From: a virus
Lineage: Duplodnaviria; Caudoviricetes
Length of the DNA: 56,169 nucleotides
Virus record (IMG/VR): IMGVR_UViG_3300037587_000914
Location: 1 to 56,169 of that record
Direction: 5' to 3' (one strand)
Part shown: positions 161-55,179 of the stretch, one piece after another
How the letters are laid out: every line of letters starts with the position of its first letter
Position numbering within the stretch: position 1 is the first letter of the stretch
Notes under the pieces: model-generated
The model's input: the letters and a program-made list of their open reading frames with translations, nothing else
Databases searched by the model: none
Told to the model about the DNA's origin: nothing
Made by a program: the position numbers and the translations under genes

Positions 161-266
161 TCGTTGGGGCGGATCGTTGGGGCGGATCGTAGGGGCGGAT
201 CGTAGGGGCAGATCGTTAGGGCAGATCGTTAGGGCAGATCGTTGGGGCAGACCTATGTGTCTGCCC
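161..266. repeat. 7 x 13-bp tandem repeat ending in a complete REP-like palindrome
   Basis: Units tcgt(t/a)(g/a)gggc(g/a)ga at 161-251, then cctatgtgtctgccc. Confidence 0.9.
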
Positions 267-521
267 TTGTATGATATTACGTTTACGTATTACGGTTTCG
301 ACAATTTGGGGGTTTTATTGTTGGGGTGAATGTGGGGGCGAACCGTTGGGGCGCGACTGCCTGCCCGACGTGCTGTTTGGCGGGTGTGTTCGCCCTGTTT
401 GTTGGATATGTGTGGGTATTGTTGTTTTGAATAGCTTTAACGCAGTCTAAGCCACAATGAGTATTGAATAATACTGCATCCACTCCGTTTTCACGACCCA
501 GCACATATCTTCCATGCCAGC

Positions 522-776
522 CTAATCTATCATGCGGTTGGATTTGTTTGAAGGTGGCCTTGTCACCGAAACAGCTATTACACATTCCAGCAAATAAGCC
601 AATGTCCATGTTACTGCAATCAGTGTCAGGCATGTATTATGGGCTGCCCAAACCACAATCCATAAAAACACAGTTATGGCAGTTGCCGTAAAGAACGGAT
701 TATCCGTCGCGCAGCGACCAATCTCAGCAAAAGCAGAAGATATATCCCTGGTAAATGTCATAGTTTTAGATTCCAT
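522..776 (-). CDS. Small hypothetical membrane protein
   Basis: ATG with upstream gagg; two hydrophobic stretches. Confidence 0.45.
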   Translation of the reverse strand: MESKTMTFTRDISSAFAEIGRCATDNPFFTATAITVFLWIVVWAAHNTCLTLIAVTWTLAYLLECVIAVSVTRPPSNKSNRMID

Positions 777-821
777 TTTTTTGCCTCGCTTTCTCTCATC
801 TGCGTTCTCCGCGCCTCTGCG

Positions 822-1109
822 TTAAAAAATACAGCCCCTGCATCCAAGCTCTAAGTACTTGCAATCACTATTTAGCAAATCCCACTCACAATGGCGCTTT
901 ATTCCGCTAATTGCATCCATCCTCTTTTCAGCAAAAGGATAATCTTCTTCGCAAGATGGGCGCATGGTGAGGGACCTGCTTGTTGCCATTCTTTCCCTTA
1001 AGAGCTTTGCTGCCCTTTGGAAACCAGCCATCGCCTCGCTGACTGTTGGCGCCATGCTGCCCATTCTTGCGAGGGCCTCCATAAGTTCTTCAGATTCACT
1101 TTCTTTCAT
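822..1109 (-). CDS. Hypothetical protein
   Basis: ATGA overlap with the upstream ORF; same strand as operon. Confidence 0.6.
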   Translation of the reverse strand: MKESESEELMEALARMGSMAPTVSEAMAGFQRAAKLLRERMATSRSLTMRPSCEEDYPFAEKRMDAISGIKRHCEWDLLNSDCKYLELGCRGCIF

Positions 1110-1303
1110 TTTGTTTTAAACTCAGCAGGCAGTTTCATATTCCTGGCTGCGCTATTTATATCCCTCACCGCTTTTCTAAGCACAGGCTCAAGTGCTCTGG
1201 CGAATTCAAGCAAGGATGTACGTGCTAGTTCTACTTGCTTCTTATGTGCGACGACTATGGCCTCAAGGCCTTTCCGGCTTTTTTCAAAATTTTCTTCTTT
1301 CAT
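1106..1303 (-). CDS. Hypothetical protein
   Basis: Tightly packed in operon. Confidence 0.6.
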   Translation of the reverse strand: MKEENFEKSRKGLEAIVVAHKKQVELARTSLLEFARALEPVLRKAVRDINSAARNMKLPAEFKTK

Positions 1304-1530: not shown

Positions 1531-1688
1531 CATTTTTTCCTCTGCGCCCTTTACGCCTTCCTGCCCGACGCGTTGTTTGGCGGGTGCGGTGAACCCTGTG
1601 AAATCTCCCGATATTGTACAATCAGCCCACACCCCGTCAACGCCAAAATCCCCTAAATCCCAAATCTAAAAGAGTAAATCTGAAATCT

Positions 1689-4055: not shown

Positions 4056-4541
4056 TTATTCGCTTAATTCTTTAGCTTTAGCTATCACATCAGCCTGGTT
4101 AAAATTGCCATTTGCAACCTCTTTTGCAAGTCTTCTCAATTCATCTATGTCATTTTTCTGTATATGCGTTGGCCAACCTTCCGGATAAAGGCGCCTAATC
4201 ACTCTGACAGCTAAAATGTCTTGTATTCTATGGATAGCGTCTACAACGTCCCGCATTTCATCAGGATGCTGCCTTTCTGTTTTAGAAAAAGCGTTATAAG
4301 CCGCCACTAAACCATCCATACAATCTTGCTCTAACGGGTCAAGTCCGGTTTTTTGATTAACTTCATTTGTTTCGGTTCTGCTGTTTTCTTTACGGACTTG
4401 CTCCATTACGCGTTCCAATTCTTGAAAATGCCCTGTTTTTCTAAGTGTATACCCTTCATCGGTCCTTACATCACCCATACATTCCACAAAGGTTTCCACC
4501 TTCTCTAACAGTGCCAAGACTGTCTTTGAATTAACATTCAT
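4056..4541 (-). CDS. Hypothetical protein sharing its C-terminal 30 aa with 5017-5400
   Basis: ORF track; ATGA overlap. Confidence 0.7.
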   Translation of the reverse strand: MNVNSKTVLALLEKVETFVECMGDVRTDEGYTLRKTGHFQELERVMEQVRKENSRTETNEVNQKTGLDPLEQDCMDGLVAAYNAFSKTERQHPDEMRDVVDAIHRIQDILAVRVIRRLYPEGWPTHIQKNDIDELRRLAKEVANGNFNQADVIAKAKELSE

Positions 4542-5016: not shown

Positions 5017-5400
5017 TTATTCGCTTAATTCTTTAGCTTTAGCTATCACGTCAGCTTGATTAAAATTTCCATTTGCGATCTCTTTTGCAAGGTTTCTCAA
5101 TTCATCTATATAATCAGTTGTTTTACCCTGGACTTGTTTGTCTTTTTTTAGACCATTAATAAGATTTTCTATATCCTTCTTTTTTATAAAGGTCCCAAGG
5201 TTGATCCTGGCTGTTTCAACACCTGAGTGATGGTTTGATAAAATAGCCCAACACCCTTTATTGTGTATCATAAATTCAAGTACCAACCACGATCCGCCTC
5301 CTGCTGGCCAGCCTAGCCCCGGAAGGTTACTACCCGTTATCTCAAAATTCTCATTTAACCAACCATTAGAGACAATGCCTTTATTTTGACTCTCTTCCAT
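5017..5400 (-). CDS. Hypothetical protein
   Basis: C-terminus duplicated with 4056-4541. Confidence 0.65.
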   Translation of the reverse strand: MEESQNKGIVSNGWLNENFEITGSNLPGLGWPAGGGSWLVLEFMIHNKGCWAILSNHHSGVETARINLGTFIKKKDIENLINGLKKDKQVQGKTTDYIDELRNLAKEIANGNFNQADVIAKAKELSE

Positions 5401-5419: not shown

Positions 5420-6245
5420 CTTACACAAGCCGGCCAAAAAAATTTCCCCCCTCGACCCCCCTGAACGAAAAAACCAAAAAGACCTTTTCCAAAACTATAC
5501 AATTTATAAATACGTATGGGGTAGGAAAAACCAATTTATCCACTATACCTTTCATAGGGGGTGGGTATGTTGGATAAAATAAACAATAGTCAATAAATAC
5601 AACATATTGTACTCAACAAACACACCTCGTAAACCATTACACCATAAAGACATAACGCGTAGAAGTAACATAAGATTTATTATCAGACGATATAAAAACA
5701 ATCCCATATATAGTACATCTCCCCACTCTTCATACATTTCACATTTCTGCTAAACCAACAGCATTTTAAATTACCCACAATAGATAGACCAAACAGAGAA
5801 AAAACTAAAAGAAGTAAACATAATCTACATAACAAGTTATTAATCATTGTAAACCTTAAATATTAAGAATAATATAAGTATATATAATATATTTTATTTA
5901 AACCTATTTGACGCTTTAAACGCCAAAAACATGAATCAAAAGCTTTTGAAGAGTGCTAATCAGAACTACTAACCGTCAGTATGGCACAATTTTAACTGCT
6001 ACACTGCTACTAATCAACACAAGTGTTTATATTACAAACACTTACACCTTGTAGCAGTCCAAAAAGGCGCGGCGCGACTGCTACCCGACTGCTACCAACT
6101 GCTACCACACTGCAACCACTACTGCTACCATAGATAAATATAAATATAATAATAACTTAAGTTTAAATAGTAGCAGTGTAGCACCGTTCTCAGTAATACG
6201 CCCTCCAACTTTTTCCTGATGGCCAGAAAAAAAGAAGAATTTCAA
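5420..6245. other. Putative replication origin: AT-rich non-coding region with CTGCTAC iterons
   Basis: CTGCTAC at 5996, 6004, 6078, 6089, 6099, 6122; inverted GTAGCAG at 6051, 6170; just downstream of primase-helicase. Confidence 0.65.
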
Positions 6246-6250
6246 AAAAA

Positions 6251-6674: not shown

Positions 6675-9600
6675 TCACCTAATTATCGTCTTTCTCAATT
6701 TCCAATATTTCCGTCCATGTATCCTCGTCCAATACGGCTCAAAGTTTGGCCGGCTTACTACATCCCAATTCGCTTTCTTAAGTACACCAATATCATTCCT
6801 CAACCTCGATACCAATATAGCCCCACTCGAATACGGATTCTTAGTCCCCATATTCCGGCTCAGCCTATCAAATGCATGGACGATATCACTCGCGCTGGCC
6901 ACAAACTCAACAGTCGTCCTGGTGTATGGTTCCTCATTTCCGTCAATCTCCTGCACACCTTTAGTCTTTAAGATCTCAATCAAATATTCCGGATGTTTAT
7001 ATCTAAATACCCCTTCAGGATAATCATCGTGATTTTGCGCCTTTTCATCTACATCCTTCATCTGTGCCATGCATTCCCTCACAAGTCCGTCCAACAACTT
7101 AACTATTGAATTCGAACCCGTCTCAGACTCCTTCGCCTTTGCATCCTGCACCTCAATCCACTCCTTCCAGATCTCTTTCGCGCCAGATTCAACCCCACAT
7201 TCCAAATCATCCTCTCCATAATAAGGAATATACTTCACTATCTTATCCAGCATCAACATGAGCAATGCCAGATATTCATCCGTCCTGCTCTTAGAGTGAT
7301 TTTTATACTCCTTCTTCAACACAGTGATATAATCCCTGCGCTTGTCCAGGTTAGGCAGCACGTCCTTATGGATAAACTTGAAAATCGACGACAAAATTAG
7401 ATTGCGCTTTTTAATAAGATTACCCGTTGTCTCATCTTCTACATAATCATCGGCCTTGTATTTACCAAAAAACTCAATATCATAAGTCCTATTTATCGTC
7501 TCCGCTTTCTCAAAAGGTTCGATCGCCGTTATCAACACCAGCGATCGCGGTGATTCCTGGACAGTCTCCGTCTCTGTCCCGCCAGCCCTCTTCTCCTTGC
7601 TTCCCTTTGTGGCAGCCAGTAACAAGAACTTCTCTATAGATTTTGTCATGTCCCTGGCCTCCAGGTTGTCGATCACCAGCAACGGATTCTGGCTGGATAT
7701 TGAGAAAGCGGCCGCAGTGGAAGGATCGCCCAGGTGCTCGTCACCATAGATCAATATAGACAACAGCCTTGCTGCAGTCGTCTTCCCGCAACCGGTCGCT
7801 CCGGAGAACTTCATCAACGCCATATAAGGAGAAAAATCCATTAAGAAAGCGGATATCAACCAGCACAAAATCAAATACTTCTGCTCCTTATCGCACGTAA
7901 GATTTTCAAGGACCAGCTCATTCAACACCTGCATCCCCTCGCTGATGTTACAATCAGGAAGATAATTCATAGGTAAGATCTTCTGTGATGATTTCAGGAA
8001 AACGCCCTCGGTGTTCATGCCGTTCGGGATCTCGCTGATAGATTCTGCAGAAACCCGAAGGATGTTATTCCCGGGCAGATTCAGATTTGCATAAAAAGTG
8101 TCAGTATTCCTATCCGTCTTGATCCACGTGGCAATGTCAATCTGCTTTCCGCAGATATAAGCCTCCGATGCCAGCGACTCCCACACAGATCGCCCCGGTT
8201 CCTTCGTCGGAAGCAACCCCGTCATCTTCTTCATCAAAGCATTAAAAGGCCGGTTCCCCCCGATAATATAAGTCTTGTGCTGGTACAAGAGATAGACGAC
8301 ATCAGATCTATCATAAAAAAACCTTCCGTTCCGGCTGAAATAATTATAAATAGCGGTAACTACAGTATTCGGATCAGCGTCCTTCAAATTCTTCAGATCT
8401 GCAAAATAATCCTTCAAGTCGTTCTTCAACGACTGATTAAGCTCGATCTGCTCCTCAATAGCCGACGGAGTCAACCCGAACTGCACGATCTTCTCCACAA
8501 ACACCAGCTTTTCCGCCTCCACCAACTCCGCCAGCGCCGCGAAAACTCCCCGTTCTTTTAATGCATTTAATCTATTATCCAGCCCGTCCAGCTTCCCAAT
8601 CTCAGCCAATTCCCACGTCAGATAATCAACCGACTCAAGCTGCAGCCGCTTGACCTCCTTCTTTTTATCGCCGTCAAAAACCTTCAAATAATCGTCAGGA
8701 TCATCGCCATCCTTACCATACGTGATAATCCGTATATTCGACACATCTGCCAGCTCAGTGCAAATCTTCCTGATATACCCCTTACCCTTTGCATACAACT
8801 TCTTCTCATCCGCATCATTATCAAGCCATAGATAAATATGCTTATGTGCCGCATTAGTCCTGAGCCACTTAATCTGATAATCCGCTGGCCCTCCTATAAT
8901 CCCCACTACATGATCAACACCGGCAGACATGACACCCAGCAGATCATTCTCCCCCTCTACCACAATAATCTCGCTAAATCTGTCAAACACCGCCTGATTA
9001 TAAAAACGCCACTGCTTTGCCCTGGCACTGGCCGGTAACTGATACTCCAGCTTTCCCTCCGGATCCTTCATAGTAAAATGATCTACCCTGTCGCCATTCA
9101 CATGCGGGAATATAGCCAGCCCCTTGCGGAAAAAGTCTACAAGCACAGTTCTATCATTCTTCTTATCCTCCCAATCCTTCCCGAGATTCGAAGCCTTAAT
9201 AACTGCATCGTCAAAACCCTTACCCCTCAGATGGTCCACCAGACAGCCATCTGCCCAGCCCACCTTCATCGTATTTAGCACGTCCTCGCTATGCTTGCGC
9301 TTCTTGACGAAATAATCCTTACCGCCATTTTCAAGGAAATGCCCGTGATAATACTCCGCCGCCTCAATAAAAATCTTCTCCTTGACCGACAATTTTTGCG
9401 CCGGAAGCTTCTTCCGCTTTTTTGCGTCTTCTATTTCTATATTGGCATACTTCGCCGCCGTCCTCAACTGCTCCCCCTTATCATCTATCGTCAGATACTT
9501 CTCGATGAAGGCAAACACATCCCCCTTCTCAGAGCACTGAAAACACGTGAAAAACTTCTCCTGCAGGCTGAAACAGCTATGGCCGCCACAAAACGGACAC

Positions 9601-12142: not shown

Positions 12143-12187
12143 TTTTATCCTTTCTTTGCGCTCTCTGCGTCTTTGCGGTGAGAAATC

Positions 12188-13375: not shown

Positions 13376-13421
13376 TTGTTTCTTTGCGTTCTCTGCGACT
13401 TTGCGTGATTATTCCATGAAT

Positions 13422-40632: not shown

Positions 40633-40636
40633 ATCA

Positions 40637-41495: not shown

Positions 41496-41496
41496 G

Positions 41497-45099: not shown

Positions 45100-45185
45100 A
45101 TTTATTCTCATTTGATTAAGGGCGAACACATAGGTACGCCCCTACGTTAAAATCCTTAAATCCTTAAATCCCTCAATTCCTAAAT

Positions 45186-45494: not shown

Positions 45495-45497
45495 AAA

Positions 45498-45839: not shown

Positions 45840-45844
45840 TTAAT

Positions 45845-45997
45845 TTATTCTCGAACATACTCTCTGACATTTGTATCTCTACCCACCACAATAATGTCCT
45901 TATTAGCAAGGACAATGTTCACATCCCTGATATCTTTGTACGTTAAAGGTCCAACCTGGAAAGCATCTACCTGAAAAGCATCTGTCTGGAATGCCAT
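45845..45997 (-). CDS. 50-aa ORF missed by the track, with AFQxD repeats
   Basis: MAFQTDAFQVDAFQVG... Confidence 0.6.
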   Translation of the reverse strand: MAFQTDAFQVDAFQVGPLTYKDIRDVNIVLANKDIIVVGRDTNVREYVRE

Positions 45998-46030
45998 GTT
46001 TATTTAATCCCTTATTCCATACTTACTTTT

Positions 46031-46170
46031 GTCATTCCCGTAGTCTGTTGAGCGGGAATCTAAGTGACTAAAGTGAACTAAAGTTTAAAGTGCCTAAAGT
46101 TATGGCAAAAGATAAATCTTTTATTCTTTTAACTTTAGGCACTTTAGATCACTTCAAAGCTTCACACTTC
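46031..46170. repeat. GTCATTCCCG..CGGGAATCT palindrome followed by AAAGTG inverted-arm element
   Basis: Directly after the capsid stop; could act as a terminator. Confidence 0.8.
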
Positions 46171-46172
46171 TT

Positions 46173-47132
46173 TTACGACAATGCGCATTTCCTGAACTGC
46201 TTCTTCTGGCCGATTATGCCGTTGTATCCACCTGTTGATACGTGAGCGGCACCAAGGACCAACTCATTACGCTGAGGAGGTCTCAGGTTCAGATCTTCCC
46301 ACTCGCCACGCTGATTCTTATCGCCTGGCAGGACTACCCAGTAGTGTGTATTTGCCATCTTCGTCGTGCTGATCACCGTGTCGATGTTGTACACAATCTG
46401 ATTGCTATTGGCATTCGGGCTCACAAAAGAGGAGGCTATCGCCTGAAATATCCTGCCCCTTAATATGGGATTGCAGACGATGGCAAATGTTGAGTTCTCG
46501 TCTACGTCATGCCCCACTGCTTCGAGGTCGATTAGTATGTTCGCACATGCCTTATTTATTGTGTTAACGTCAGATGTGTCAAATGCCTGGTCTATGCTTG
46601 TCAAAGCTGTAATCAGCGCGTAGAATATAGTTGCTTTCTTGTCCCACCATCTACGGACGGTTGCAGAAGCAAGCGCGTCTATTTTGTAATACTGGTTAAA
46701 CCTGATCCAGTCATCCAGCACGTTGAACCCGCCTGTAAACCTTAGCATGGCAACGTTAGTCTTCGCTGATGTCGGCAGTTTGGAGAGCTTCGCCTCTTCG
46801 CCCTCAAGCTGCTGGTAGAAGGTTACACCGCCGCTTACATCAAGCACATCGAATGTGTTGTTCGTGCTCGTGCGCATGTCCACCTCGTCAAAGAGGAATT
46901 CATATCCTCTGTCAGGTGATTTAATGGTATTCGCCTGAACAAGCGAAACAGGTATAGTACCCATGAGATTCGAATCAGAACCCACAAACTTGTCGCCGCT
47001 TACTCTCGTAACAGGACCGTCGTGAACCTCCTTCATGAAGTGGTTCAGGGCGCCGATAATGGCATCCTTCCTATCCTCCACTGGGATCTCTTCGATCCTT
47101 TTCCAGTCAAAAATTTTCTTTCCGTATAACAT
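46173..47132 (-). CDS. Major capsid protein
   Basis: Synteny after protease and cement; 319 aa; GGAGG RBS. Confidence 0.7.
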   Translation of the reverse strand: MLYGKKIFDWKRIEEIPVEDRKDAIIGALNHFMKEVHDGPVTRVSGDKFVGSDSNLMGTIPVSLVQANTIKSPDRGYEFLFDEVDMRTSTNNTFDVLDVSGGVTFYQQLEGEEAKLSKLPTSAKTNVAMLRFTGGFNVLDDWIRFNQYYKIDALASATVRRWWDKKATIFYALITALTSIDQAFDTSDVNTINKACANILIDLEAVGHDVDENSTFAIVCNPILRGRIFQAIASSFVSPNANSNQIVYNIDTVISTTKMANTHYWVVLPGDKNQRGEWEDLNLRPPQRNELVLGAAHVSTGGYNGIIGQKKQFRKCALS

Positions 47133-47241
47133 TCTACGTTCCCTCCTTTTTATAATTGCGTTGTAGGGGCGAACCTATGTGTTCGCCCTGTTTGTTAATA
47201 TGTGTTTGCCCTGTTTGTTAGGATGTATTCACCGTTTTAGT

Positions 47242-47853
47242 TTATGTCACAGCTCTGACTAATGTGTAGTCCAGAATATGGTCAGTACTTGGATCCGCAC
47301 TCATCACAACGTCGATCTGTCCTGATGCGGCCTGCGCATCTAATATCGTCACCGGAGTAGCGCCCCTGTCGTTCAATGTTACATGACAGACGTCTGTCGC
47401 CAGTGCACCGGCAATAGTGATAGTCTCGTTCGCATCGCCGCCTGCAGTTGTGAATGAAGCGGCTGCTATAATTATGTGCGTCTGTACAACTCCGGCGGCA
47501 GATATAACGTCCAGCTTCGGTTCCAGCCACATGACGACGTGAGTATCTGCACTGGCAGCATCCTCAAGGCAGTAACCGCACTGCGTGTTGCCGGCGGCTG
47601 ACTTATTGATTTCGTCGTCTGCCACATCAAAATAAACTTTATCGTGCGCGTTGATAGCCAACGATGTATTCTTGGGCATCGAAACCTTACCCTTGTATAC
47701 ATAAGCGTTGTCTGCCGCTGCGTCAGCGGCATTGACTGCAATCAATATCGCACCGTTATTCAAAATTATCTGGCCCAGCGTAACGGCGGAACTATCATCG
47801 TGTTTAATAGTCCTTAAGTTGGGTATAACGTCCATAGGTATTCCGATTGCCAT
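47242..47853 (-). CDS. DUF2190-like capsid cement/decoration protein with C-terminal extension
   Basis: AINAHDKVYFD..GNTQCGYCLEDA. Confidence 0.7.
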   Translation of the reverse strand: MAIGIPMDVIPNLRTIKHDDSSAVTLGQIILNNGAILIAVNAADAAADNAYVYKGKVSMPKNTSLAINAHDKVYFDVADDEINKSAAGNTQCGYCLEDAASADTHVVMWLEPKLDVISAAGVVQTHIIIAAASFTTAGGDANETITIAGALATDVCHVTLNDRGATPVTILDAQAASGQIDVVMSADPSTDHILDYTLVRAVT

Positions 47854-48007
47854 GATCTTGCCTCCTTTTTGTTATTTGGTTAATTGGTTCTTTGCCGGCT
47901 CAATCTTTTAGATTGAGCCGAAACATTTTATCTTGTGTTCTTGTATAATTAAGGGCAAACACACAGGATTGCCACCTTGTCCTCGGCGCCTTTTGTCCGG
48001 GGAACAT

Positions 48008-49264
48008 TTATTTCTTGCTATCTGTATTGGGGATCAATACGTTCTCTTTCTCCCCATCCTTAGACTTGTCCCTGCTATCATCACCTTCTGTCTGCGATTT
48101 GTTAGGGAATGCAACTTCCATCCTCTTCTGAAGACTCTTATTCTCATTCTTCAGATAGTCAATAGGATGATTCTCCACGACAGCCTTTACACCCTTCTGA
48201 TCTTCTTCTGACTCGCCGATATCTTTAAGCGCGGCCTTCATCCTGATGTTGTCCTTAACCAGCTCCTGCCTGAAAGCCTTGCCGTCAGCAGCAAGCGGGT
48301 CGAGTTCGGATATCTTCGTTTCGAGTTCCGTTATTTTGGTTTCCTTCACCTTGATCTGCGTATCGGCTTTTGTGCCGGCAGCACCAATCAACGCCTTAAT
48401 CTCGTCAGCAATGCCATCCTCTGTGAAGAGAGTTTTAAACTCCTTAGACAATTTTTCTAAAAACGCTTTTAAGTCCATGCTGTCCTTACCTCCTTTTTCG
48501 TTGTTAACATTATTTTCTATATCTTTTACCTGCTGCTCATCACTACCGGTCTCATCCTTATGGGAAGTGAGCCAGGAATTTAAATTCTGTGCCTTTTCGC
48601 CGTCATGTAGATATGACTGCGCAACCTTATAAGCCACCCTGTCAATATCCTTCTGCGAAGTTGCCCCCTGCTGTGCTCCGAGATAAACGATAGAGCCTTC
48701 CCTCGCCTCACCTGGAGCAACATATTCAAAATACAATACCTGGTCGAATTCACCTTTAACCGCTTTAAAATCGGTAGCAGTAAAGCCGATTGACCTGTGG
48801 CGATAAATGCCCCCGGAAAGGTTATCTATCAGCTTCTGGTTCCACTCCTTCCTGAGTGTGTAGATCCACGCAAAAATAACTTTCGCCTTATCAATCTCGT
48901 CAGGAAGCCGTATCTCCTCTCCCGTGATCTCTTTAAACTGCTCCTTTGATATCTCTTCCGTTTTAGCATCGAAATAGAGACCGATAGGAAGCCGGCTCCT
49001 GTCATGTACCTCAAGGAATGATTTCCCCGGCAGCGTCCGGGCGTAATCATCTAACAGATCTTCAGGAAAGCGTTCCCTGTCGCGGTCTATACCGTTATGT
49101 GCCAACAGCTCTTTTTGTACGTATATATCGCCTGCCGCAAGAGTCTCCTGCGCATATTTACTATTAATGATATCCAGCATATCCGGCGTAACATCAGCAC
49201 CCTTAATGGACACAAGCCCGGTCTGCTTGTAATATGTTTTGTTTTTATCTTTATTCTTTTTCAT
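48008..49264 (-). CDS. Prohead protease fused to scaffold
   Basis: DRDRERF, GKSFLEVHD, SIGF, EGSIVYLGAQ; coiled-coil C-terminus. Confidence 0.75.
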   Translation of the reverse strand: MKKNKDKNKTYYKQTGLVSIKGADVTPDMLDIINSKYAQETLAAGDIYVQKELLAHNGIDRDRERFPEDLLDDYARTLPGKSFLEVHDRSRLPIGLYFDAKTEEISKEQFKEITGEEIRLPDEIDKAKVIFAWIYTLRKEWNQKLIDNLSGGIYRHRSIGFTATDFKAVKGEFDQVLYFEYVAPGEAREGSIVYLGAQQGATSQKDIDRVAYKVAQSYLHDGEKAQNLNSWLTSHKDETGSDEQQVKDIENNVNNEKGGKDSMDLKAFLEKLSKEFKTLFTEDGIADEIKALIGAAGTKADTQIKVKETKITELETKISELDPLAADGKAFRQELVKDNIRMKAALKDIGESEEDQKGVKAVVENHPIDYLKNENKSLQKRMEVAFPNKSQTEGDDSRDKSKDGEKENVLIPNTDSKK

Positions 49265-49353
49265 ATCTGATTGTATTTGTACGGACGAACCTCGCGTCCT
49301 CGGCGCTTTTCAGTCCGGGGAATGTGTTCGCCCTTGTCCGGATGCCCTACGGA

Positions 49354-49824
49354 TTATTCTTCCTTAGCTTTCTTGTCCACCGCTTTTTCTGCCGCTTTCT
49401 GATCTCTTTCCGCTATCAGCTTGAGCGCATCTTCACCGGTAACGTAGCTTTTTTCCTTTACCTCTTCTGCCTTCTCTTCCGTGGCGTTAGTTATGAGTTC
49501 GGCGTTTGCAGTTTCAAGCTTTGCGTTTATGTCTTTCAGTTCGGCGTTGCCAGCCGTCAACGTGGAATTCGCTTTAACATAGAGATCTCTTTCCTTCTTA
49601 TGCTCAGCTTCTTCTTCGTCTATATAAGTTTTTAATTCTGTGTTTTCAGTAGTCAGCTTTTCGATTTCTTCCTTGTGTTTGTCGTTCTCCTCTTCAGCGC
49701 CCTTCGTCCCTTCAACACCAGAACCCTTGAAATCCTTCTTACCATCATCATCCTTGGACGTCTTCGTTATCTTTTCCTCTTTACCCTGCTTGTTACTTTG
49801 ATTCTGATTTTGTTTATCATGCAT
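49354..49824 (-). CDS. Acidic coiled-coil protein
   Basis: E/K-rich heptads; AAGGAG RBS. Confidence 0.6.
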   Translation of the reverse strand: MHDKQNQNQSNKQGKEEKITKTSKDDDGKKDFKGSGVEGTKGAEEENDKHKEEIEKLTTENTELKTYIDEEEAEHKKERDLYVKANSTLTAGNAELKDINAKLETANAELITNATEEKAEEVKEKSYVTGEDALKLIAERDQKAAEKAVDKKAKEE

Positions 49825-49908
49825 GGTTTTTTTCTCCTTAAACGGGCGGATACACAGGTCACGCCCCTACATTAAATCCCAAATCTAAAATCGTAATTCG
49901 TAAATTGT

Positions 49909-50355
49909 TTATAACGAATTTATTGCTTTTAACCTGTCATTCTGGAAATTCGCATTTTGCCCTGTCAGTCCATAGCTCCCCTTAGCCCTGTCCCTCAACT
50001 CACCCACCTTAGATTTGTTCCAGTTATTCACCCTGGAGTAATAGCCGACTATTCTGGTGATGCCGTTCAATACGATAGATGCGCGTTTGTTCTGAATGAC
50101 ACTGATAAATTCCTTTGCCTTGTCATATTCAGTAACCTTATTAACAATCTCACTGATAGCCACTTCCACGAATGCACCTTCAATGCCTTCCTGCTTGCTG
50201 TAATCACGGATTGTGAATACTTCTTCGGATTCCGGAGTCGCGGTTCCGATTATTTCCAGATCACTTGAAAGCTCGACCGCCTCCACAAACAACAGAAGTG
50301 CCTTTTCTATTTTTTCGTGAACGGCTGTTTTTGCTTCTAATGTCGCAGTTATCAT
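49909..50355 (-). CDS. Stand-alone NrdD-type glycyl-radical domain protein
   Basis: ITRIVGYYSRVNNWNKSKVGELRDR matches the class III RNR C-terminal motif. Confidence 0.8.
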   Translation of the reverse strand: MITATLEAKTAVHEKIEKALLLFVEAVELSSDLEIIGTATPESEEVFTIRDYSKQEGIEGAFVEVAISEIVNKVTEYDKAKEFISVIQNKRASIVLNGITRIVGYYSRVNNWNKSKVGELRDRAKGSYGLTGQNANFQNDRLKAINSL

Positions 50356-50382
50356 TCAATTTCTCCTTATTAATTAAGCGTG

Positions 50383-50500
50383 AAGTGAACTAAAGTTTGA
50401 AGTGCCTAAAGTTGTGGCAAAAGATAAATCTTTTATTCTTTTAATAGAAAAAAACACCATAACTTTAGGCACTTTAGATCACTTTTAACTTTGAAACTTT
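50383..50500. repeat. AAAGTG/CACTTT inverted-arm element
   Basis: Similar to copies at 33856, 46062, 29021. Confidence 0.85.
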
Positions 50501-50533
50501 TTACTTTATTGTATGCCTTCTAACAGAAATCCA

Positions 50534-50561
50534 GGACAAAGTCTGTCAGGTGACGCAAAAT
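50534..50561 (-). promoter_or_regulatory. Second copy of the 28-bp late motif
   Basis: Identical to 57-84; upstream of the head operon. Confidence 0.65.
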
Positions 50562-50746
50562 CTTTTTATTAATATTTTTGACGGGATTAACAAGATGTAC
50601 TGGATTTTTAAAAATATCTTATTTCTCCTTTTCCCTTTGCGATCTCTGCATTAAATTTGTTTCGTGTCTCTGTTCCTTAGTGTGAGGAATTAGTTTCTCT
50701 CTAAATATCTTGTTTATCCTGTTATCCTGTCTAGCCTTTTATATTT

Positions 50747-53098
50747 TTAGTTCGCAGCCGCCAAACATATCGGGCATGCATCCGGAGCTGGAACGAATAC
50801 CACCACAAACTTCCCACTCCTCTCCTCTACCGTATTCGAGCACCTGCAGCGGGGATGCGTATCGATACCGGCTATCACAGCGTTACTGGTATCAATGTCC
50901 CACTGCTTCCACTCATCCAGCTTTGCACGTTCTGCCGCGACAGTCATCTCCGTCCGCGCCAGACGTTCCCAGTCGCTATTCGCCTCCCCGAACCTTGCCT
51001 TCAGGCGCGCTGCAACATGGCGAGGATTCGTGCCGGCAAGCACCTGCGCTTCCATCTCAGGAATAATCTTGGTGATTATCCCCTTTGTGGCGTTATCCTT
51101 TACCAGCTCGAACCCTTCTTTTGAAAGCTTATCGTAAGCTTCCGAGTTTTTTATTATGTCGAGTATCGGCCTGTCCTTACCTATCAGGGTTGCCGCCTGT
51201 ATCAGTCCCAGACTATACGACTGCCCGTAATACCAGCGCACGGCTGAATCCGTATCGCGCCAATCATATTTCCCGTTAAACTCCTCCAGCGACTTCATAA
51301 TCGCCGCCTGCTGCTCAACAGAGAAAGTGAACGCCTCAATCTCCGGAATATCACCGGGCGCTTTCCCTTGCATACTGCCAACTGCCAACTGTCTACTGCC
51401 CGTCGTCAGTTGTTCTTCCCGCGGTGTTGGCTTCGGTACGGCTACCAGTCCGTCCGTGGGCATCTGTAAGATGGCAAATACCTGTTCTTCCAGTACGCTC
51501 CATTCATATTTGAGATCCTTCTCGTAATTATCTTCAACCTCATCCAGATCCGGCCACGGAGTGGAACGGAAAAGTTCTTTGAGTCCAAAAGTGTCAAATT
51601 CCTGTTCCAGCTTTATTAACTCATTAGAATCATTTCGTAATTTCGCACTCTTTACCTCCTCTTGCCATTCTAATAGCACCTTCTGATCCATTTCGGATTT
51701 CTGATTTCGATTTTCTGATTTGCCACACCCGCATGTACACTGCGAAGGCCCGGAGATACGGCTATCCGCTATATGGGATTTCTGGTTGTTCCGATCGTAC
51801 CGGATCCCCGCAGTATTTTCGGATTTCGGATTTCGGGTTTCGGATTTCCCTGCTTCAGCAGGAAGCATCATCTCGGCCTGAGAGTTCAGGAAGTTGGCCT
51901 TTGCTGTTTTTTCTATGTCATGGAGATTTACCTGTGCCCACTCAAGATCCCAATCATCTTCTTTCCACGTCCTGCCCCTAAGCAACAGCAAATTCTTGAC
52001 AAGGTTACGGTAGGTCGGCATCTTGGCTGCCTGGCGAGTCTTTACGGCTGCCATTATCATATTGACCTCGGCATCACTCAACCTCTCTGAAGTTGACCAG
52101 TGCAGACCCAGCATCCACGGCGGAAGGCCGGTCTTGGCAACTATCTGCTCCAATGCGCCCCTCATGGGCTCCTTGAATTCAAGCACCTGTTTATTATCTG
52201 CGCCGAGAACGGTTATATCTATAGACGATTTTGCGTCGATAGCGTATACAAAATCGGCGGAGCTGCCAGCACGCTTCGCGTTTATAGCGGTCGTAAGATC
52301 GGCTTTCATCTCCGCAACCCTCGTCTTGTGATTGGTCCCGTCTTTTTTGGATGTCTTGTATATAAGCTTATATGACGGGTCGCCAAAACGTTCGAAAGTG
52401 TTGAGGACGGTATTCTGTATAGTGACAATAATCTTTGACACGAATTCGCACGAGCGCATCATGGCCGTGCCGTATGGGTTCTGGTTTTCGTTGTTGATGC
52501 TGAAGTACATCAGGTTGCCGGGTTTAAGGGCACGGTATTCAGTATCATCATTTGCTTTCTGAGAGATCTCAAGGCCGGAGGATATTCGTCTGAATTGGAT
52601 AAATTTTGAATCTGCAACCCGCAGGCCGACTATATCGTTACGCTTTTTATTTGTCACGAATTCGCTGATACTAAATCCCTGTTCGTGCGCCTCGCTTGTG
52701 TGGTTCTGATCAAATGCGAGTATGCCCTTCTGGATATCATTTACCGTAATGTTATCCATCCACTCCTGTATCTCTTTTGTCAGGGCGTCACTGTTGCCCG
52801 TAACTATCAGGTGTCCGTCGAGCTCGGTGCTGCGCTGAATGGCGGCATCAATGATCGGGATTGCCTCACGAAGGAATTCATAAAAGTTCGGGTCTACCTT
52901 GCGCGGAACGTAAGTCTTGAAATATGATGTATATAACCCCTGCCCGTCATTAGGCCGTATCTGCCATCCGGATGTCGATTGTTGAGCTACTGGGGCCTTT
53001 TCAGTACCGCTTGAACTATTTGAACTGCTTAATCGGTTTAAACGGTTTTTTTTCTGCGCCGCTAACATCTTTGCCTTCTTCTTTTTCTTTGTTGACAT
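50747..53098 (-). CDS. Portal protein fused to MuF-like minor head domain
   Basis: NPYGTAMMR, RFGDP, GLPPWMLG (portal); ERLARTE, HPRCRC (MuF). Confidence 0.8.
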   Translation of the reverse strand: MSTKKKKKAKMLAAQKKNRLNRLSSSNSSSGTEKAPVAQQSTSGWQIRPNDGQGLYTSYFKTYVPRKVDPNFYEFLREAIPIIDAAIQRSTELDGHLIVTGNSDALTKEIQEWMDNITVNDIQKGILAFDQNHTSEAHEQGFSISEFVTNKKRNDIVGLRVADSKFIQFRRISSGLEISQKANDDTEYRALKPGNLMYFSINNENQNPYGTAMMRSCEFVSKIIVTIQNTVLNTFERFGDPSYKLIYKTSKKDGTNHKTRVAEMKADLTTAINAKRAGSSADFVYAIDAKSSIDITVLGADNKQVLEFKEPMRGALEQIVAKTGLPPWMLGLHWSTSERLSDAEVNMIMAAVKTRQAAKMPTYRNLVKNLLLLRGRTWKEDDWDLEWAQVNLHDIEKTAKANFLNSQAEMMLPAEAGKSETRNPKSENTAGIRYDRNNQKSHIADSRISGPSQCTCGCGKSENRNQKSEMDQKVLLEWQEEVKSAKLRNDSNELIKLEQEFDTFGLKELFRSTPWPDLDEVEDNYEKDLKYEWSVLEEQVFAILQMPTDGLVAVPKPTPREEQLTTGSRQLAVGSMQGKAPGDIPEIEAFTFSVEQQAAIMKSLEEFNGKYDWRDTDSAVRWYYGQSYSLGLIQAATLIGKDRPILDIIKNSEAYDKLSKEGFELVKDNATKGIITKIIPEMEAQVLAGTNPRHVAARLKARFGEANSDWERLARTEMTVAAERAKLDEWKQWDIDTSNAVIAGIDTHPRCRCSNTVEERSGKFVVVFVPAPDACPICLAAAN

Positions 53099-53153
53099 TT
53101 TTTATCCTTGAACTGTTTAAACTGCTTAATCGATTGAAACGGCTTAAACCGCT

Positions 53154-55064
53154 TTAATTCCCACTCCCTACAAATATATCCTCTACCACATTATTAAAAA
53201 GCCCACCCAGCGTTTCACCTCTCTCGGCATCGATAAGATGATCGTCTGTGTTCTTATAAATCCGATGCTTGCCCTGCCTTTGTGTATGGTTCGGGTAAAA
53301 GAAGGCGAAATCCGGATCTGCCGGGTATTCTGTCTCAAGGCGTTGTATTTTTTTCGTCATATGGTCAGTTGCGAGTTCTTTCATCGTTATCTTTGCCGCT
53401 TTGCCTGACTTGGCCTCTACAATCGCCTCTCCGTCCTCGTCAATATTGTCCGTAGTAGATTCAAAGCTGAAGCCCTTGAGGCGGTCGTCATAGTTTTTAT
53501 GCGCATATTGAGGTAATCCCAGCAGGTCATGGACTATTGCCGAACCGGCATTGCCGAAATCCAGGCCCCATCCCATTGTAAGTGCTCCCGAATCGTATAT
53601 ATCATCGAGAGCATCAAGCGCCTGGCATTGCTGATCGTAAGTAACGCTCTTGAGCTGGAGTCGGGCTACATAGCGGCCCTTCTTGCCGATTATGTTTTTT
53701 ACGATTAACTCCGTAGGATCTGGGCTGAATCCAAAATCTCCCCCGCCGCTTTTCAGACCGGGAACGGAATTGAAAAAACTTTTTATCAGTATTCTGAATT
53801 CTGACTCATGATGCTCGTCGTAGTTAAAGAATCCTGATTTAACGTATACCTTGTCCAACAGGCACACAGGCACTGATACAGGGCCGTTATCACCCGGGAC
53901 CTGTTCGTACTTGTACCCGGATACCGTCACCTCATCATTTGCCGAATCGACCAGCACTTTCATAAATCTGTACTCCTGTATTTCCCTGATACACGGCTTC
54001 AGCTGTTCCCAGGGGAAGACAGAATATTCCGGATCGCCGTCTGTGCCGAGAACGTTATGTTTGTATTCCGGAGAATCTTCTCCGCCGAATTGTTCGATGA
54101 AGAACTTTTTACGCTCTGGTGACCAGAAAGGAGCCGGCATAAGGGTTTTTGGCCAGTTGAAGAGTCTGAATTTAATATCTTTAATATGTTTTGCTGCACC
54201 TTTAAAGGAACCATCGGTAACCTCCTGTTCTTTCGGATTTCGGATTTCGGATTTCGGATTTTCTGTGGGAGCTACGCCCTTGGTTGCTCTCTCCCCTAAT
54301 TTGTAAAACTCGCATGACCTGTCACCGTCAGGTACGGAATAAATCTTTGCCACACAGCCCGGCTTCATTGCACGCCAGAACTCAGACCACTGCTTTTTAT
54401 TCTTCTTCTTCGCCGCTTCGTCTACGATTGCGAATGTCGTGGCGTGTATACCTCTATACGCTTCGCCGTCATGGCCTGCGGGCCTGAAATCGATCTTGAA
54501 CCTGTGCGGTTTACCATAAAAATAAAACGCATGGTGCGGGTGCTTCTTCCAGCCGCCTTTTATGCGGGGATGGCAGCGCGTCCTGGCAATATCAGGATTC
54601 CACGTAAACTGATCTTCCATCGCCTCGATTATTTCGTCGAGATGAGTCTGCTGCGGCGCCGCGATCAGCGCAGAACCGTTTGGCGTTGTAATCGCCGCAT
54701 GCAGCGCAAAAACCACTATCTCGCGTGTCTTACCAGTCTCCGCACCGTCTTTGTGGACAGTGTGTCCGTCATACCTGATCGACTCTTCCTGATAATCAAA
54801 AAAGTTATACGGATCCTGATGGTCCGGGTCTTCCGGTTCACGCAAAAAACACTGGGCCCACAGGACGCGATCGGCCTTGATAATAGCGTGTTGAAACTGA
54901 TCTAAGGATGTAAAAGGCTCCGGAAACTCATTACGCGCCAGCTGGTGATGCGTCCAGTCATAAAGTGCCAACGCATTCTCAAAATGCTCCTGTGGCACCA
55001 GAATACCCTTCTTCAAATCTGCTATCGCTATCGGTTCCGCTTTTTCAAGTGTCGCTGTATCCAT
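53154..55064 (-). CDS. terL: Terminase large subunit
   Basis: YQ motif, GAETGKT Walker A, AIVDEAA Walker B, GGDFG and DDHLIDA nuclease residues. Confidence 0.88.
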   Translation of the reverse strand: MDTATLEKAEPIAIADLKKGILVPQEHFENALALYDWTHHQLARNEFPEPFTSLDQFQHAIIKADRVLWAQCFLREPEDPDHQDPYNFFDYQEESIRYDGHTVHKDGAETGKTREIVVFALHAAITTPNGSALIAAPQQTHLDEIIEAMEDQFTWNPDIARTRCHPRIKGGWKKHPHHAFYFYGKPHRFKIDFRPAGHDGEAYRGIHATTFAIVDEAAKKKNKKQWSEFWRAMKPGCVAKIYSVPDGDRSCEFYKLGERATKGVAPTENPKSEIRNPKEQEVTDGSFKGAAKHIKDIKFRLFNWPKTLMPAPFWSPERKKFFIEQFGGEDSPEYKHNVLGTDGDPEYSVFPWEQLKPCIREIQEYRFMKVLVDSANDEVTVSGYKYEQVPGDNGPVSVPVCLLDKVYVKSGFFNYDEHHESEFRILIKSFFNSVPGLKSGGGDFGFSPDPTELIVKNIIGKKGRYVARLQLKSVTYDQQCQALDALDDIYDSGALTMGWGLDFGNAGSAIVHDLLGLPQYAHKNYDDRLKGFSFESTTDNIDEDGEAIVEAKSGKAAKITMKELATDHMTKKIQRLETEYPADPDFAFFYPNHTQRQGKHRIYKNTDDHLIDAERGETLGGLFNNVVEDIFVGSGN

Positions 55065-55100
55065 TTATGTCAGTTTTTTCCCTCTCTCAACTATACAACC

Positions 55101-55128
55101 TGTCATCCTGAGCGGAGTCGAAGGATCT
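55101..55128. repeat. TGTCATCCTGAGC..GAAGGATCT REP-like palindrome
   Basis: Related halves at 20302, 21438, 24548, 46031. Confidence 0.75.
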
Positions 55129-55179
55129 AATTCCTTTAAATCGTAATTCGTAAATCCCAAATCCCAAATCGTAAATCTA

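Follow-up and report, generated by a model that had tools for sequence, protein, structure and literature searches.

The marine-sediment phage described here, analysed as a single window (the whole stretch of DNA, 56,169 nt), is tiled with several families of short repeats, denoted A and D to I. These are, on balance, host-type repeats acquired as DNA, and the inverted ones are probable intercistronic RNA signals. The phage offers a rare natural case for studying the spread and the role of short repeat elements.

The window is identified as phage DNA by a tyrosine integrase, a primase, two methyltransferases, a tape-measure protein, a Mu-like portal and adaptor, and a large terminase. Essentially all phage genes are carried on the minus strand, in a coherent one-strand map that runs from the small terminase region to the integrase. 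Positions 56031-56169 repeat bases 1-139 with one mismatch, forming a terminal overlap of 139 bp, and the IMG/VR record is classed as linear with an estimated completeness of 87%. A sequencing run from a second study covers 84% of sampled words of the window, with long collinear pieces spanning the junction elements. Pfam profiling of the 90 ORFs of the window gave a weak Mor-family match at 1689-2144 (24.6 bits; cut-off 24.9), and none of Y1_Tnp, 23S_rRNA_IVP, PDDEXK_3, GIY-YIG or DUF559, the last three being searched on called ORFs only; six-frame searches of the window with PF01797 and PF05635 were likewise negative. The preliminary description was therefore right that no cognate enzyme is on board. 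Over the whole window no curated Rfam covariance model matches at E ≤ 1. A CRISPR array was considered and rejected: scans for tandem and direct repeats gave no spaced identical repeats, and the 90 ORFs include no Cas family. A search of 281 genomes from the candidate phylum gave no terminase homologue at E ≤ 1e-40, and one of 22 repeat-rich genomes gave no capsid homologue, so the host of the phage is inferred from the repeats alone; no single genome among those examined has all the repeat families.

Word counts were compared with 200 dinucleotide shuffles of the window. Families A, D, E, F and G exceed the shuffles 15- to 2000-fold, and most repeat matches fall in intergenic DNA, which makes up 12% of the genome. 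The A hairpin, as a loose regular expression, matches 11 times (0.00 in shuffles; 10 of the 11 intergenic), the strict 26-nt pattern 9 times (none in 100 shuffles), and the pattern with up to two mismatches 14 times, with none for a reversed control. Two consecutive D units occur 26 times (1.40 expected; 24 intergenic), E 20 times (0.24; 18 intergenic), F 29 times (1.27; 21 intergenic, 22 on the sense strand) and two G units 20 times (0.01; 14 intergenic). As bare words, H and I are not enriched over the dinucleotide shuffles of the window (11 vs 6.1 and 3 vs 1.5, respectively); H is in excess as the hairpin GTCATYCY..RGRATC (4 matches, 0.08 expected), and I is present as one complete hairpin only. 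Of the 53 junctions at least 15 bp long, 33 carry one or more repeat families, and three loops within genes, two in the portal and one in the terminase, also hold arrays. The earlier picture of a phage tiled with repeats thus stands, with H real as a hairpin and I limited to a single one. The repeats had been called palindromic or periodic; those of E and F form direct arrays and are not palindromic hairpins. Sixteen of the 17 positions given for A align as hairpin copies; the exception, 49279, is a degenerate fragment. An additional degenerate copy was located at 47952. The positions given for D, E, F and G all contain their motifs, 1540 as a single G unit.

In the 17 aligned copies of A in the window, an unpaired 5' GTAG tag precedes a stem of 8 bp with a loop of 6 nt. 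The stem covaries, with 92.6% of cells paired and 10 double changes, a level reached by none of 500 shuffles; T tails are missing from most of the hairpins. Simple A hairpins lie at 22336-22367, 24924-24955 and 25212-25243 on the minus strand and at 39423-39461 on the plus strand, and one is combined with an E array at 33412-33501. Other copies are elaborated. At 161-265, seven tandem 13-mers (TCGTTGGGGCAGA), equivalent to the left half of the hairpin, lead up to a complete A hairpin (241-265), and the hairpin at 47133-47241 has a tandem 23-nt half-hairpin duplication. Two 102-nt composites of an A hairpin and a second hairpin (27363-27464 and 27899-28000, both minus strand) are 86% identical, and the A-related composite at 329-395 is an inverted copy of 27362-27428 and 27899-27964. 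The degenerate copy at 47947-47998 (minus strand) adjoins a GGCGCCGAGGACAAG motif family. The only doublet among the 17 copies, 36660/36700, forms a REPIN-like element at 36635-36740 (−49.5 kcal/mol, z −7.8).

F arrays of 3-6 units each are found at nine junctions, for example the GATTTnn array at 1645-1687 (minus strand). A module of F array, A hairpin and Shine-Dalgarno sequence recurs at five junctions, and the five F+A modules are alike over 59-85 nt, a likeness that would also fit a leader cassette selected by the phage. On the minus strand, the combination is seen with its Shine-Dalgarno sequence and start codon at 14046-14140, with a GATTGCG/GATTTCT heptamer array at 37371-37472, with additional G units at 40899-41025, and at 45113-45185 and 49825-49908. 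F repeats also follow a GATTGnn inverted-arm hairpin (32507-32622, z −4.2), accompany a G inverted-arm hairpin (39897-40013, z −3.7), and, at 55065-55179, stand with an H hairpin (55102-55127) 5' of the terminase gene. E 9-mers sit directly before start codons. On the minus strand, E arrays occupy 1-40, with 9-bp units nCnGTTTAA, upstream of the gene 55180-56013 across the circular junction (the array is repeated at 56014-56059), as well as 16214-16298, 38927-38963 and 53099-53153, the last filling the terminase-portal junction. Within coding sequence, heptamer arrays are located in the portal gene at 51690-51721 and 51817-51848, and in the terminase gene at 54231-54261, where a perfect array of AAATCCG (4.4 units, sense strand) encodes ENPKSEIRNPKE; all three are on the minus strand.

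At 20219-20620, D units flanking a small GC hairpin (20223-20292) are combined with an H hairpin (20303-20326) and a G inverted-arm hairpin (20520-20620), and a near-copy of the D portion recurs with an H-like hairpin at 24467-24578. A D array stands with an H hairpin (21439-21463) at 21380-21468; the lone I-type hairpin, CCCTCTCCC..GGGGAGAGG..GGTGAGGGG, lies at 21665-21712. A D element with a conserved AT-rich centre is joined by an E array at 29012-29207, within a weak ORF call. Inverted-arm D elements occupy 30825-30982 (predicted RNA stem −52 kcal/mol, z −6.8), 50373-50502 (−36.9 kcal/mol, z −5.5) and, with an H hairpin at 46031-46060, the region directly 3' of the major capsid gene (46031-46172; −36.8 kcal/mol, z −5.5). 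The D element at 33853-34018, beside an E array, folds weakly (z −1.1). G units are found at 789-829 (CGCAGAG/CGCGGAG, period 8-9 bp), 23621-23657, 23860-23884 and 26751-26809, and at 27084-27134 in inverted orientation relative to 23630-23670; on the minus strand, one G array lies immediately 5' of a start codon (12145-12175) and another fills its junction (13376-13421).

In predicted folding, z scores range from −3.7 to −7.8 for the D, G, GATTG and A-doublet elements, and none of 200 shuffles is as stable; the E arrays, the F arrays and one D element fold no better than shuffles. Terminator-like sites number 25 in the window (17 ± 3.6 expected), and sigma-70-like promoter sites are not in excess there (30 vs 34 expected).

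Family A is a pan-bacterial GTAG-tagged REP/REPIN hairpin that accompanies a RAYT-like HUH (Y1) enzyme in bacteria. Its 26-nt pattern occurs across many phyla, in at least 124 genome contig stretches, and all 50 bacterial genomes checked contain it, with 1-193 copies each and no control matches. An inverted partner lies within 130 nt of 45 out of 150 bacterial copies. RAYT-like ORFs (PNHIH..WFKTMTTNEY..WQRNYYEHIIR) with A inside or adjoining were found in two (G039, G002) of five A-holding genomes, namely four A-rich ones and G415, in agreement with the earlier assignment of A to the GTAG REPs of RAYT-type enzymes; PNH.H frames adjoin A at 3 of the at least 124 matched loci. With 9 strict copies in 56 kb, A is about two times as dense in the phage as in the most A-rich of the 50 genomes. 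By a hand count from the triplet table, however, the middle positions are fully paired in only 4 of 9 phage copies vs 141 of 150 bacterial ones, and this greater degeneracy argues against ongoing copying.

Family D was surveyed in the phylum of a Desulfobacteraceae MAG, where 40 of 401 genomes match, 18 of them with 10-71 matches (controls, 0-1). In a control phylum 27 of 401 genomes match, nearly all singly, and matches are clustered in two genomes only. A is present in just 2 of the 18 D-rich genomes, in which E is scarce. D also occurs at six or more junctions of another phage that has only three proteins in common with this one, and in a relative with 64% capsid identity. The families other than A had been said to resemble repeats flanking four kinds of small gene, and this was assessed in five D-rich Desulfobacterota genomes. 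These hold 5-13 PF05635 genes per genome; a periodic run adjoins 19 of 25 such genes (3 of 45 shifted controls), and exact inverted flank matches of at least 11 nt are found at 16 of 25 (1 of 45), the arms containing F units at L277 and D units at L295 and L299. Inverted flanks also occur at 7 of 12 PF13366 genes (0 of 23 controls), with G units at L323 and L321. The proposed association is thus borne out between four-helix-bundle genes and heptamer arms (F, D and others), and between GxxExxY genes and arms of G type; it is thin for DUF559, with periodic arms at one of two small genes, and for GIY-YIG, with H-type hairpins flanking one of three.

In the favoured reading, D, F and G are gene-less versions of small cassettes, in which inverted arrays of 7-10 bp units surround a gene of about 120 amino acids; E, H and I are probably gene-less versions likewise. 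The cassette genes are of the four-helix-bundle S23p/Avd-like and GxxExxY PD-(D/E)xK types and, on thin support, to a lesser extent of the DUF559 or GIY-YIG types. The cassettes share their layout with the 23S rRNA intervening sequence. No small ORF lies between the phage arms (PF05635 was negative in six frames and PF13366 among the ORFs), and the loops of the inverted-arm elements contain AT-rich sequence and a small hairpin only.

Comparison with related phages (45-74% protein identity) shows the same sites to be empty, or to contain ordinary hairpins or other families. At the terminase-portal junction, 12 relatives have less than 26 bp in eight cases, 121 bp without repeats in one and other families in three. 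The position of ENPKSEIRNPKE is a gap in relatives (for example in 4 of 12 aligned: L140, L145, L139, L149) or holds other inserts, so the terminase array is an in-frame insertion; the second portal array is an 11-aa insertion missing from five relatives. Fixation at orthologous sites in all relatives, together with absence from the host, had been named as evidence against the earlier interpretation; since the repeats vary among relatives and are present in bacterial genomes, that interpretation survives this comparison. Junctions with their own repeats or hairpins occur in no fewer than 10 of 21 loci from related phages, and the repeat density, once regarded as very unusual, is not unique. 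Directly 3' of the capsid gene a hairpin is present in all eight assessable relatives (two periodic-arm, two I-type, four ordinary), which suggests that the hairpin itself is kept, whatever its family. Variants about 90% and more than 99% identical hold elements at the same sites and so give no sign of recent movement.

In four runs from three studies, summed contig depth rises at D, at F+A and at the terminase array, to 140-580 compared with 30 or less in most other bins, and many contigs diverge into unlike sequence at element edges. Contig graphs link copies that lie far apart, such as 45155 with 49872 and 46085 with 50461. The joints in these graphs have short sides of 18-34 nt, often arise from repeats or other organisms, and may be assembly effects of the repeats.

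The following course of events would account for these observations. The repeats would not be phage inventions but members of families that are dispersed and multi-copy in bacterial chromosomes, and the phage would have gained them in the form of DNA, both at gene junctions and within protein loops that tolerate insertion. Since the phage encodes none of the cassette or RAYT proteins, the repeats would have to reach it through host functions that act in trans or through recombination with the copies of the host, with lysogeny as the most plausible occasion. The phage genes would be read one way as long transcripts, in which the inverted-arm elements and A doublets should form duplexes of 20-35 bp. 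By analogy with intervening-sequence stems, such duplexes would most likely be intercistronic processing or stabilising signals, substrates of RNase III type, standing where relatives have ordinary hairpins; this role is proposed from predicted folds and the junction comparison only. The unstructured E and F direct arrays just upstream of start codons may be leader elements or unpaired half-cassettes.

The same host-type origin could be granted and any use to the phage denied, the repeats being tolerated parasites that pile up at junctions and loops because insertions elsewhere are lethal. We regard this as possible but rather unlikely. The family at a given junction does vary freely among relatives, many of whose junctions are empty; coding loops hold arrays too, the A copies are decayed, and no structure is predicted for the arrays of E and F. 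However, such parasites would not be expected to leave a hairpin 3' of the capsid gene in every assessable relative, to persist in variants only about 90% identical, or to keep compensatory changes in their stems. A purely phage-evolved set of promoters, operators, leaders or terminators, for example sites of a Mor-like activator, with bacterial copies as prophage remnants, is improbable. It draws on the elements immediately 5' of start codons, the recurrent F+A+Shine-Dalgarno module, the sense-strand bias of F and the sub-threshold Mor match, but the families occur 10-190 times per bacterial genome, beside small non-phage genes and across phyla, relatives lack the elements or have replacements, D is present in an unrelated phage, and sigma-70-like sites show no excess.

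A role at the level of DNA, as recombination hot spots shuffling modules between co-infecting phages or prophages, or as replication or packaging sites, appears quite improbable. Module boundaries coincide exactly with elements and unrelated phages share identical families, and the graph links between distant copies could be read in the same way were they not possibly assembly effects with short-sided joints; the compensatory stem changes point instead to selection on folding. A chimeric assembly, with phage and bacterial DNA joined through repeats, is very hard to credit: contigs in the runs do break at repeats and the record is linear and incomplete by estimate, but the one-strand map is coherent, the ends overlap, and the collinear pieces from the second study pass through the junction elements. 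The host-type repeats, with the inverted ones as intercistronic signals, thus remain our preferred reading.

Known systems share parts of this arrangement. RAYT (TnpA-REP) mobilises REPs by cleavage and ligation of single-stranded hairpins. Like REPs and REPINs, A is a palindrome of about 26 nt with a 5' GTAG tag, dispersed and extragenic, and in bacteria RAYT-like genes are set among its copies, some of which form inverted doublets; unlike REPs and REPINs, it is essentially one sequence family across many phyla, and the phage carries no RAYT. In these traits A agrees with the GTAG super-family of REPs (Di Nocera 2013, PMC3733652). In Coxiella, the intervening sequence contains an S23p ORF with variable tandem heptamers 5' of it, and its terminal stem of 28 bp is cleaved by RNase III (PMC4990558). 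Most PF05635 genes inspected resemble it, as small ORFs framed by periodic inverted arms that include F and D, whereas the phage copies have no ORF and lie between protein genes, not in rRNA; RNase III cuts the stem of the intervening sequence, while the phage stems are known as predicted folds only.

Direct repeats of the heptamer TAACTGA are intergenic in Beggiatoaceae, Cyanobacteria and Bacteroidetes (MacGregor 2015, PMC4679880). Like the phage arrays they are tandem heptamers (2-6 or more) a few nucleotides 5' of start codons, some inside ORFs, with a patchy cross-phylum distribution; the abstract of that paper draws no link to small cassette genes (PMC4679880). The phage differs in its units (GATTTnn, GATTGnn and AAATCCG, none of them TAACTGA), in its several coexisting families and many inverted-arm pairs, and in being a phage carrier. 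In the cyanobacterial STRR/SDR repeats, small hairpin elements are nested in heptamer arrays. The start-associated sequences and stoperators of mycobacteriophages are short repeats at many junctions, lineage-specific sites of phage proteins, unlike the present families, which are common to bacterial chromosomes and unrelated phages. In phage T7, intercistronic RNase III hairpins in long one-direction transcripts are cut to give stable individual mRNAs. The inverted-arm elements are proposed to function in the same manner, with the difference that the T7 sites are unique phage sequences and the elements described here are members of host repeat families.

The repeat tiling of this phage genome, proposed earlier from inspection of the sequence, is real. 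Against a background of 200 dinucleotide-preserving shuffles of the window, a loose regular expression for family A, the GTAG REP hairpin, gave 11 matches with 0.00 expected, and the periodic unit arrays gave 26 against 1.40 (D, two units), 20 against 0.24 (E), 29 against 1.27 (F) and 20 against 0.01 (G, two units). Between 70 and 92% of the family matches are intergenic, intergenic DNA making up 12% of the genome, and 33 of the 53 junctions of at least 15 bp carry one or more families. The typical element starts a few bases past the upstream stop codon and runs to the next gene's ribosome-binding site. The two further hairpin types of the preliminary description fared less evenly: H is not enriched as a bare word, while as a hairpin it has 4 matches against 0.08 expected (three of the four copies abut D elements), and I is represented by one complete hairpin in the window.

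The families have distinct architectures. On the sense strand, A reads GTAGGGGC-NNN-CCTRTGTGT-NNN-CCC, an 8-bp stem closing on a conserved 6-nt loop; the strict 26-nt pattern has 9 matches against 0 expected, and 17 copies can be aligned. In the stem of these window copies 92.6% of cells are paired and ten cells, at two stem positions, carry two-sided changes, a result equalled by none of 500 shuffles. Tandem half-hairpins of A lie at 161-251 (a 13-mer repeated seven times) and 47176-47230, and likewise next to bacterial copies (loci L046, L091, L100 and L126). F consists, on the sense (minus) strand, of three to six heptamers GATTTnn in tandem, and E of tandem 9-mers whose core, GTTTAAAC, is self-complementary. 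Units are 9–10 bp in D and 8–9 bp in G, mostly arranged as two inverted arms flanking an AT-rich centre. RNA of D, G, GATTG and A-doublet elements is predicted to form stems of 20–35 bp (-27 to -52 kcal/mol, z -3.7 to -7.8); for the E arrays, the F arrays and one D element, predicted folding is no better than that of shuffles. Two other identities were considered and rejected. The conserved centre of the D elements, which begins ATGGCAAAAGAT, is not the remnant of a four-helix-bundle ORF: symmetry continues along the arms (CTAAAGTTATGG/CCATAACTTTAG), and what they enclose is an AT-rich loop containing a small hairpin, as in gene-less bacterial D elements; and a CRISPR-like array is contradicted by the absence of regular spacers and of cas genes.

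The window is a temperate tailed phage with essentially one-way transcription, nearly all long ORFs lying on the minus strand. Gene names, assigned with PHROGs and Pfam, include a tyrosine integrase (1960-2940), a primase-helicase (6675-9695), C5 and N6 DNA methyltransferases, an HNH endonuclease, two radical-SAM proteins, a tape-measure protein (34019-36634), Mu-type gp36/gp37-like proteins, a capsid protein (46173-47132), a cement protein, the portal (50747-53098) and the large terminase (53154-55064). The assembly probably closes on itself, since bases 1-139 are present again, with one mismatch, as a direct overlap at 56031-56169; despite this overlap, the record is listed in its source database as linear and 87% complete by estimate. 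The phage has no near relative among GenBank phages, against which megablast of 8 kb of the window returned zero matches. The sole match in a terminase protein search was a Microcystis phage, 35% identical and uninformative on the host. The phage was found in two runs labelled marine sediment metagenome. Rfam gave 0 matches over the window and no tRNAs were found in it, which leaves no att or tRNA clue.

Several other features of the genome were recorded. An identical 23-nt motif, GCGTCACCTGACAGACTTTGTCC, occurs on the minus strand at 57-79 (equal to 56087-56109) and 50534-50556, upstream of the first structural gene and of the gene at 49909-50355 (3 matches including the terminal duplicate, 0 expected), and relatives have a similar CTGCCAGAC..TTTCTGnTATA motif heading their structural operons; the motif could be a late promoter or an activator site. 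The 513-bp non-coding stretch at 5738-6250, adjoining the primase gene region, contains 11/21-bp repeats of the GGTAGCAGT type at 6075-6130 and looks like an iteron-type replication origin; the equivalent gap has GGTAGCAGT repeats in the closest relative, L140, and other repeats of their own in L139 and L142. Two adjacent small genes have 3' ends (4056-4153 and 5017-5114) that are 90% identical across 98 nt, pointing to duplication of a C-terminal domain whose PHROG label, 'DNA ligase', is weak. The tape-measure gene contains three and a half 57-bp tandem repeats (34496-34692), ordinary for such genes. A small ORF beside the HNH endonuclease (23147-23488) matches the PHROG 'RNA polymerase beta subunit' at E 1e-23, with no Pfam match.

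Relatives were read junction by junction, 12 loci found through the portal (40–63% identity) and nine through the capsid protein (54–74%). At orthologous sites the repeats are not fixed: some sites are empty and others are differently filled. The A pattern is missing from all 12 portal-derived loci and occurs in one of the nine capsid-derived loci, L159, as two loose-pattern matches at a single A-like variant hairpin. At least 10 of the 21 relatives have periodic-arm, I-type or H-type hairpins of their own, with F-type units in L146, D in L152 and G in L148, L156, L158 and L159. The terminase–portal junction, occupied in the window by an E array, is shorter than 26 bp in eight of 12 relatives, measures 121 bp without repeats in one and holds other families in three. 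Immediately 3' of the capsid gene, where the window has a D element, a hairpin is found in all eight assessable relatives: two are periodic-arm, two I-type and four ordinary, one of these with a T tail. In a phage with only three proteins in common with the window, six or more junctions hold D elements. The provirus-class relative G456 has in its early region (L363, 5681-7204) a gene for a TnpB-family RNA-guided endonuclease and a second tyrosine recombinase; the flanks examined around it carry phage genes only and give no host clue.

Arrays are also found within essential genes. A perfect heptamer array at 54231-54261 in the terminase gene encodes ENPKSEIRNPKE; this site is a gap in L140, L145, L139 and L149 and holds unrelated inserts in other relatives. 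The portal array at 51817-51848 is missing from five relatives, and at the second, 51690-51721, relatives have periodic inserts of their own. These in-gene arrays, set against gaps or other inserts in relatives, are direct sequence evidence that arrays arise by insertion or expansion of DNA and not solely as selected intergenic signals. At this second portal array, aligned to aa 455-470 of the window, L141 and L157 have 7-aa-periodic inserts (for example ARNDKHxE twice, and GKGLKGQGLKG), suggesting a permissive loop that has received arrays repeatedly and independently.

The distribution of the repeats in the community was followed by aligning contigs from four runs of three studies to 36000-55999; run X1 is possibly the source sample. 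Summed contig depth is 140–580 in bins with D, F+A or the terminase array and at most 30 in most other bins, and many contigs diverge to unlike sequence exactly at element edges (25 at 46062 in run X3, 14 at 54231 in X1). From these depth jumps and run-off points we conclude that the same repeats occupy many other genomic contexts in these sediments. Joints between distant copies in some contigs were set aside as evidence of deletion variants, as their sides are short and they are probably repeat effects. The junction elements are in place in long pieces of a near-identical variant (X2, record 10; 8 differences, no gaps) and of an approximately 90% identical one (X3, records 19 and 22), with small indels inside A. 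Across this range of divergence the aligned elements are stable, and no recent movement was seen among the variants compared.

Judged by its distribution, A is a pan-bacterial REP. The pattern was found in at least 124 stretches of genome contigs; the titles listed include Desulfobacterota-type MAGs, Nitrospirota, Chloroflexota, Bacteroidota, Oscillospiraceae, Acidobacteriota, Chlorobium and Gammaproteobacteria. Each of the 50 genomes checked contains 1 to 193 copies, with 0 for the reversed control. An inverted partner lies within 130 nt of 45 of 150 bacterial copies, and the middle of the stem covaries among bacterial variants (GAA/TCG, AGA/CTG, GGA/CCG, GCA/GCG). RAYT-like HUH ORFs with A inside or adjoining were found in two of five genomes with A (four rich in it, and G415, where D and A are both present); the remaining Y1 matches in these five belong to a different subfamily without A nearby, and one genome has none. 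Among the loci listed, a PNH.H frame runs into an A hairpin in 3 of 124. The RAYT-like ORFs of L319 (G002:C203) and L316 (G022:C48) continue straight through several REP copies, with the translated hairpin A (VGADLCVCP or GRTHRFAPT) separating the HUH motif from the remaining enzyme; a different REP occupies the same spot in the RAYT-like enzyme of another genome. With 9 strict copies in 56 kb, the phage has about double the A density of the richest among the bacterial genomes checked (193 copies in 2.6 Mb), and the phage copies are more degenerate: by hand count, the variable stem positions are fully paired in 4 of 9, against 141 of 150 bacterial copies.

The periodic families have a different range. 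In the 50 A-holding genomes D gave three single matches, the chance level, and its 86 stretches in viral contigs are also near chance except for two multi-match contigs. In the phylum of a Desulfobacteraceae MAG, taken as Desulfobacterota, 40 of 401 genomes have D matches, 18 of them with 10–71 dispersed matches (controls 0–1); in a control phylum, just two of 401 genomes exceed two matches, all clustered at one locus. Five D-rich genomes hold 5–33 copies of G (controls 0), often as inverted pairs, and two of the five hold F, including the window's own GATTTAC unit; A is present in two of the 18. E is scarce in those five and multi-copy elsewhere in the phylum (18, 17 and 13 matches), one bacterial example lying immediately ahead of a start codon. 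The D and G elements of bacteria are intergenic, begin just past stop codons and contain other small hairpins.

The preliminary description had likened the families other than A to repeats that flank four kinds of small gene. In bacterial genomes this link holds for two kinds and, thinly, for two more. Genes of PF05635, the four-helix-bundle (S23p) family, number 5–13 in each of five D-rich genomes and are present in one of 14 control genomes. They are flanked by inverted arrays of 7–10 bp units that vary from copy to copy: CGTAAAT, equal to F, at L277; D units at L295 and L299; GGTTCAC at three copies; and GGATTCA at four, a unit also present in the phage relative L141. By strict automatic tests, with frame-shifted controls within the same loci, a periodic run adjoins 19 of 25 PF05635 genes (controls 3 of 45), and the flanks share an exact inverted match of at least 11 nt in 16 of 25 (controls 1 of 45). 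Inverted flanks are likewise found at 7 of 12 PF13366 (GxxExxY) genes and 0 of 23 controls, with family G at L323 and L321. Among small DUF559 genes one of two has GGTTCAC arms, and among small GIY-YIG genes one of three has H-type hairpin flanks. The phage itself lacks the associated genes, as had been noted: a six-frame search of the window found no RAYT/Y1 gene, and PF05635 is absent from it, from the unrelated D-bearing phage and from three relatives.

The families are thus common to bacterial chromosomes and unrelated phages, and differ among relatives at orthologous sites. We propose that the phage acquired its elements through host functions acting in trans or by recombination with host copies, most plausibly while it was a prophage. 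A broader reading would join these observations, and we hold it tentatively, as possible though doubtful as a whole: periodic-arm cassettes would make up a class of selfish elements that is widespread and has largely escaped description, with inverted arrays of 7–10 bp units around a small gene for a nucleic-acid-binding protein or nuclease (S23p/Avd-like four-helix bundle, GxxExxY, DUF559, GIY-YIG), with the rRNA intervening sequence as the best-known member. Acting in trans, the encoded proteins would spread single arrays and arm pairs devoid of a gene, even into phages and coding loops; the phage would use them as RNase III-type punctuation of polycistronic mRNAs, and phages would be both victims and vehicles between bacterial lineages.

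Several observations count against the reading of the elements as host-derived DNA with a probable role in RNA. No single genome holding all families was found. No prophage relative was found with the terminase in 281 genomes or with the capsid in 22 repeat-rich genomes, empty outcomes that show nothing. The phage A copies are decayed, recent movement was not seen, and the E and F arrays are unstructured. Five F arrays each lead into an A hairpin, then a Shine-Dalgarno sequence and the start codon, with mutual likeness over 59–85 nt, and this module could be a leader selected by the phage. Consensus scans for promoters and terminators gave no clear signal at the elements, with no promoter excess and a mild terminator excess only.

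REPs and intervening-sequence stems have hitherto been viewed as chromosomal curiosities, and their mode of spread is unsettled. Here at least seven such families occur in a compact sequenced genome without any candidate enzyme. Relatives whose sites are empty or differently filled, together with in-frame arrays in essential genes, make three questions testable: whether the elements are mobilised in trans, and by which proteins; whether phages ferry them between hosts; and whether they are co-opted as RNA processing signals. On the practical side, metagenome assemblies break at repeats of this kind, which could also be used as markers to link uncultured phages with their hosts. In the limited literature searched, we found no description of periodic-arm cassettes as a class or of these families in a phage.

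The finding brings heptamer arrays, REPs and four-helix-bundle/GxxExxY genes into one picture. The intervening sequence is described as an S23p ORF with a 28-bp stem cut by RNase III and with variable heptamers (PMC4990558). By analogy with this precedent, and given that a hairpin of one kind or another is retained there in relatives of the phage at a shared junction, the stems of inverted elements in long sense transcripts are probably RNase III-type processing or stabilising sites. PF05635 in turn resembles Avd, the accessory protein of DGRs (PMC10053308), a likeness that hints at nucleic-acid binding.
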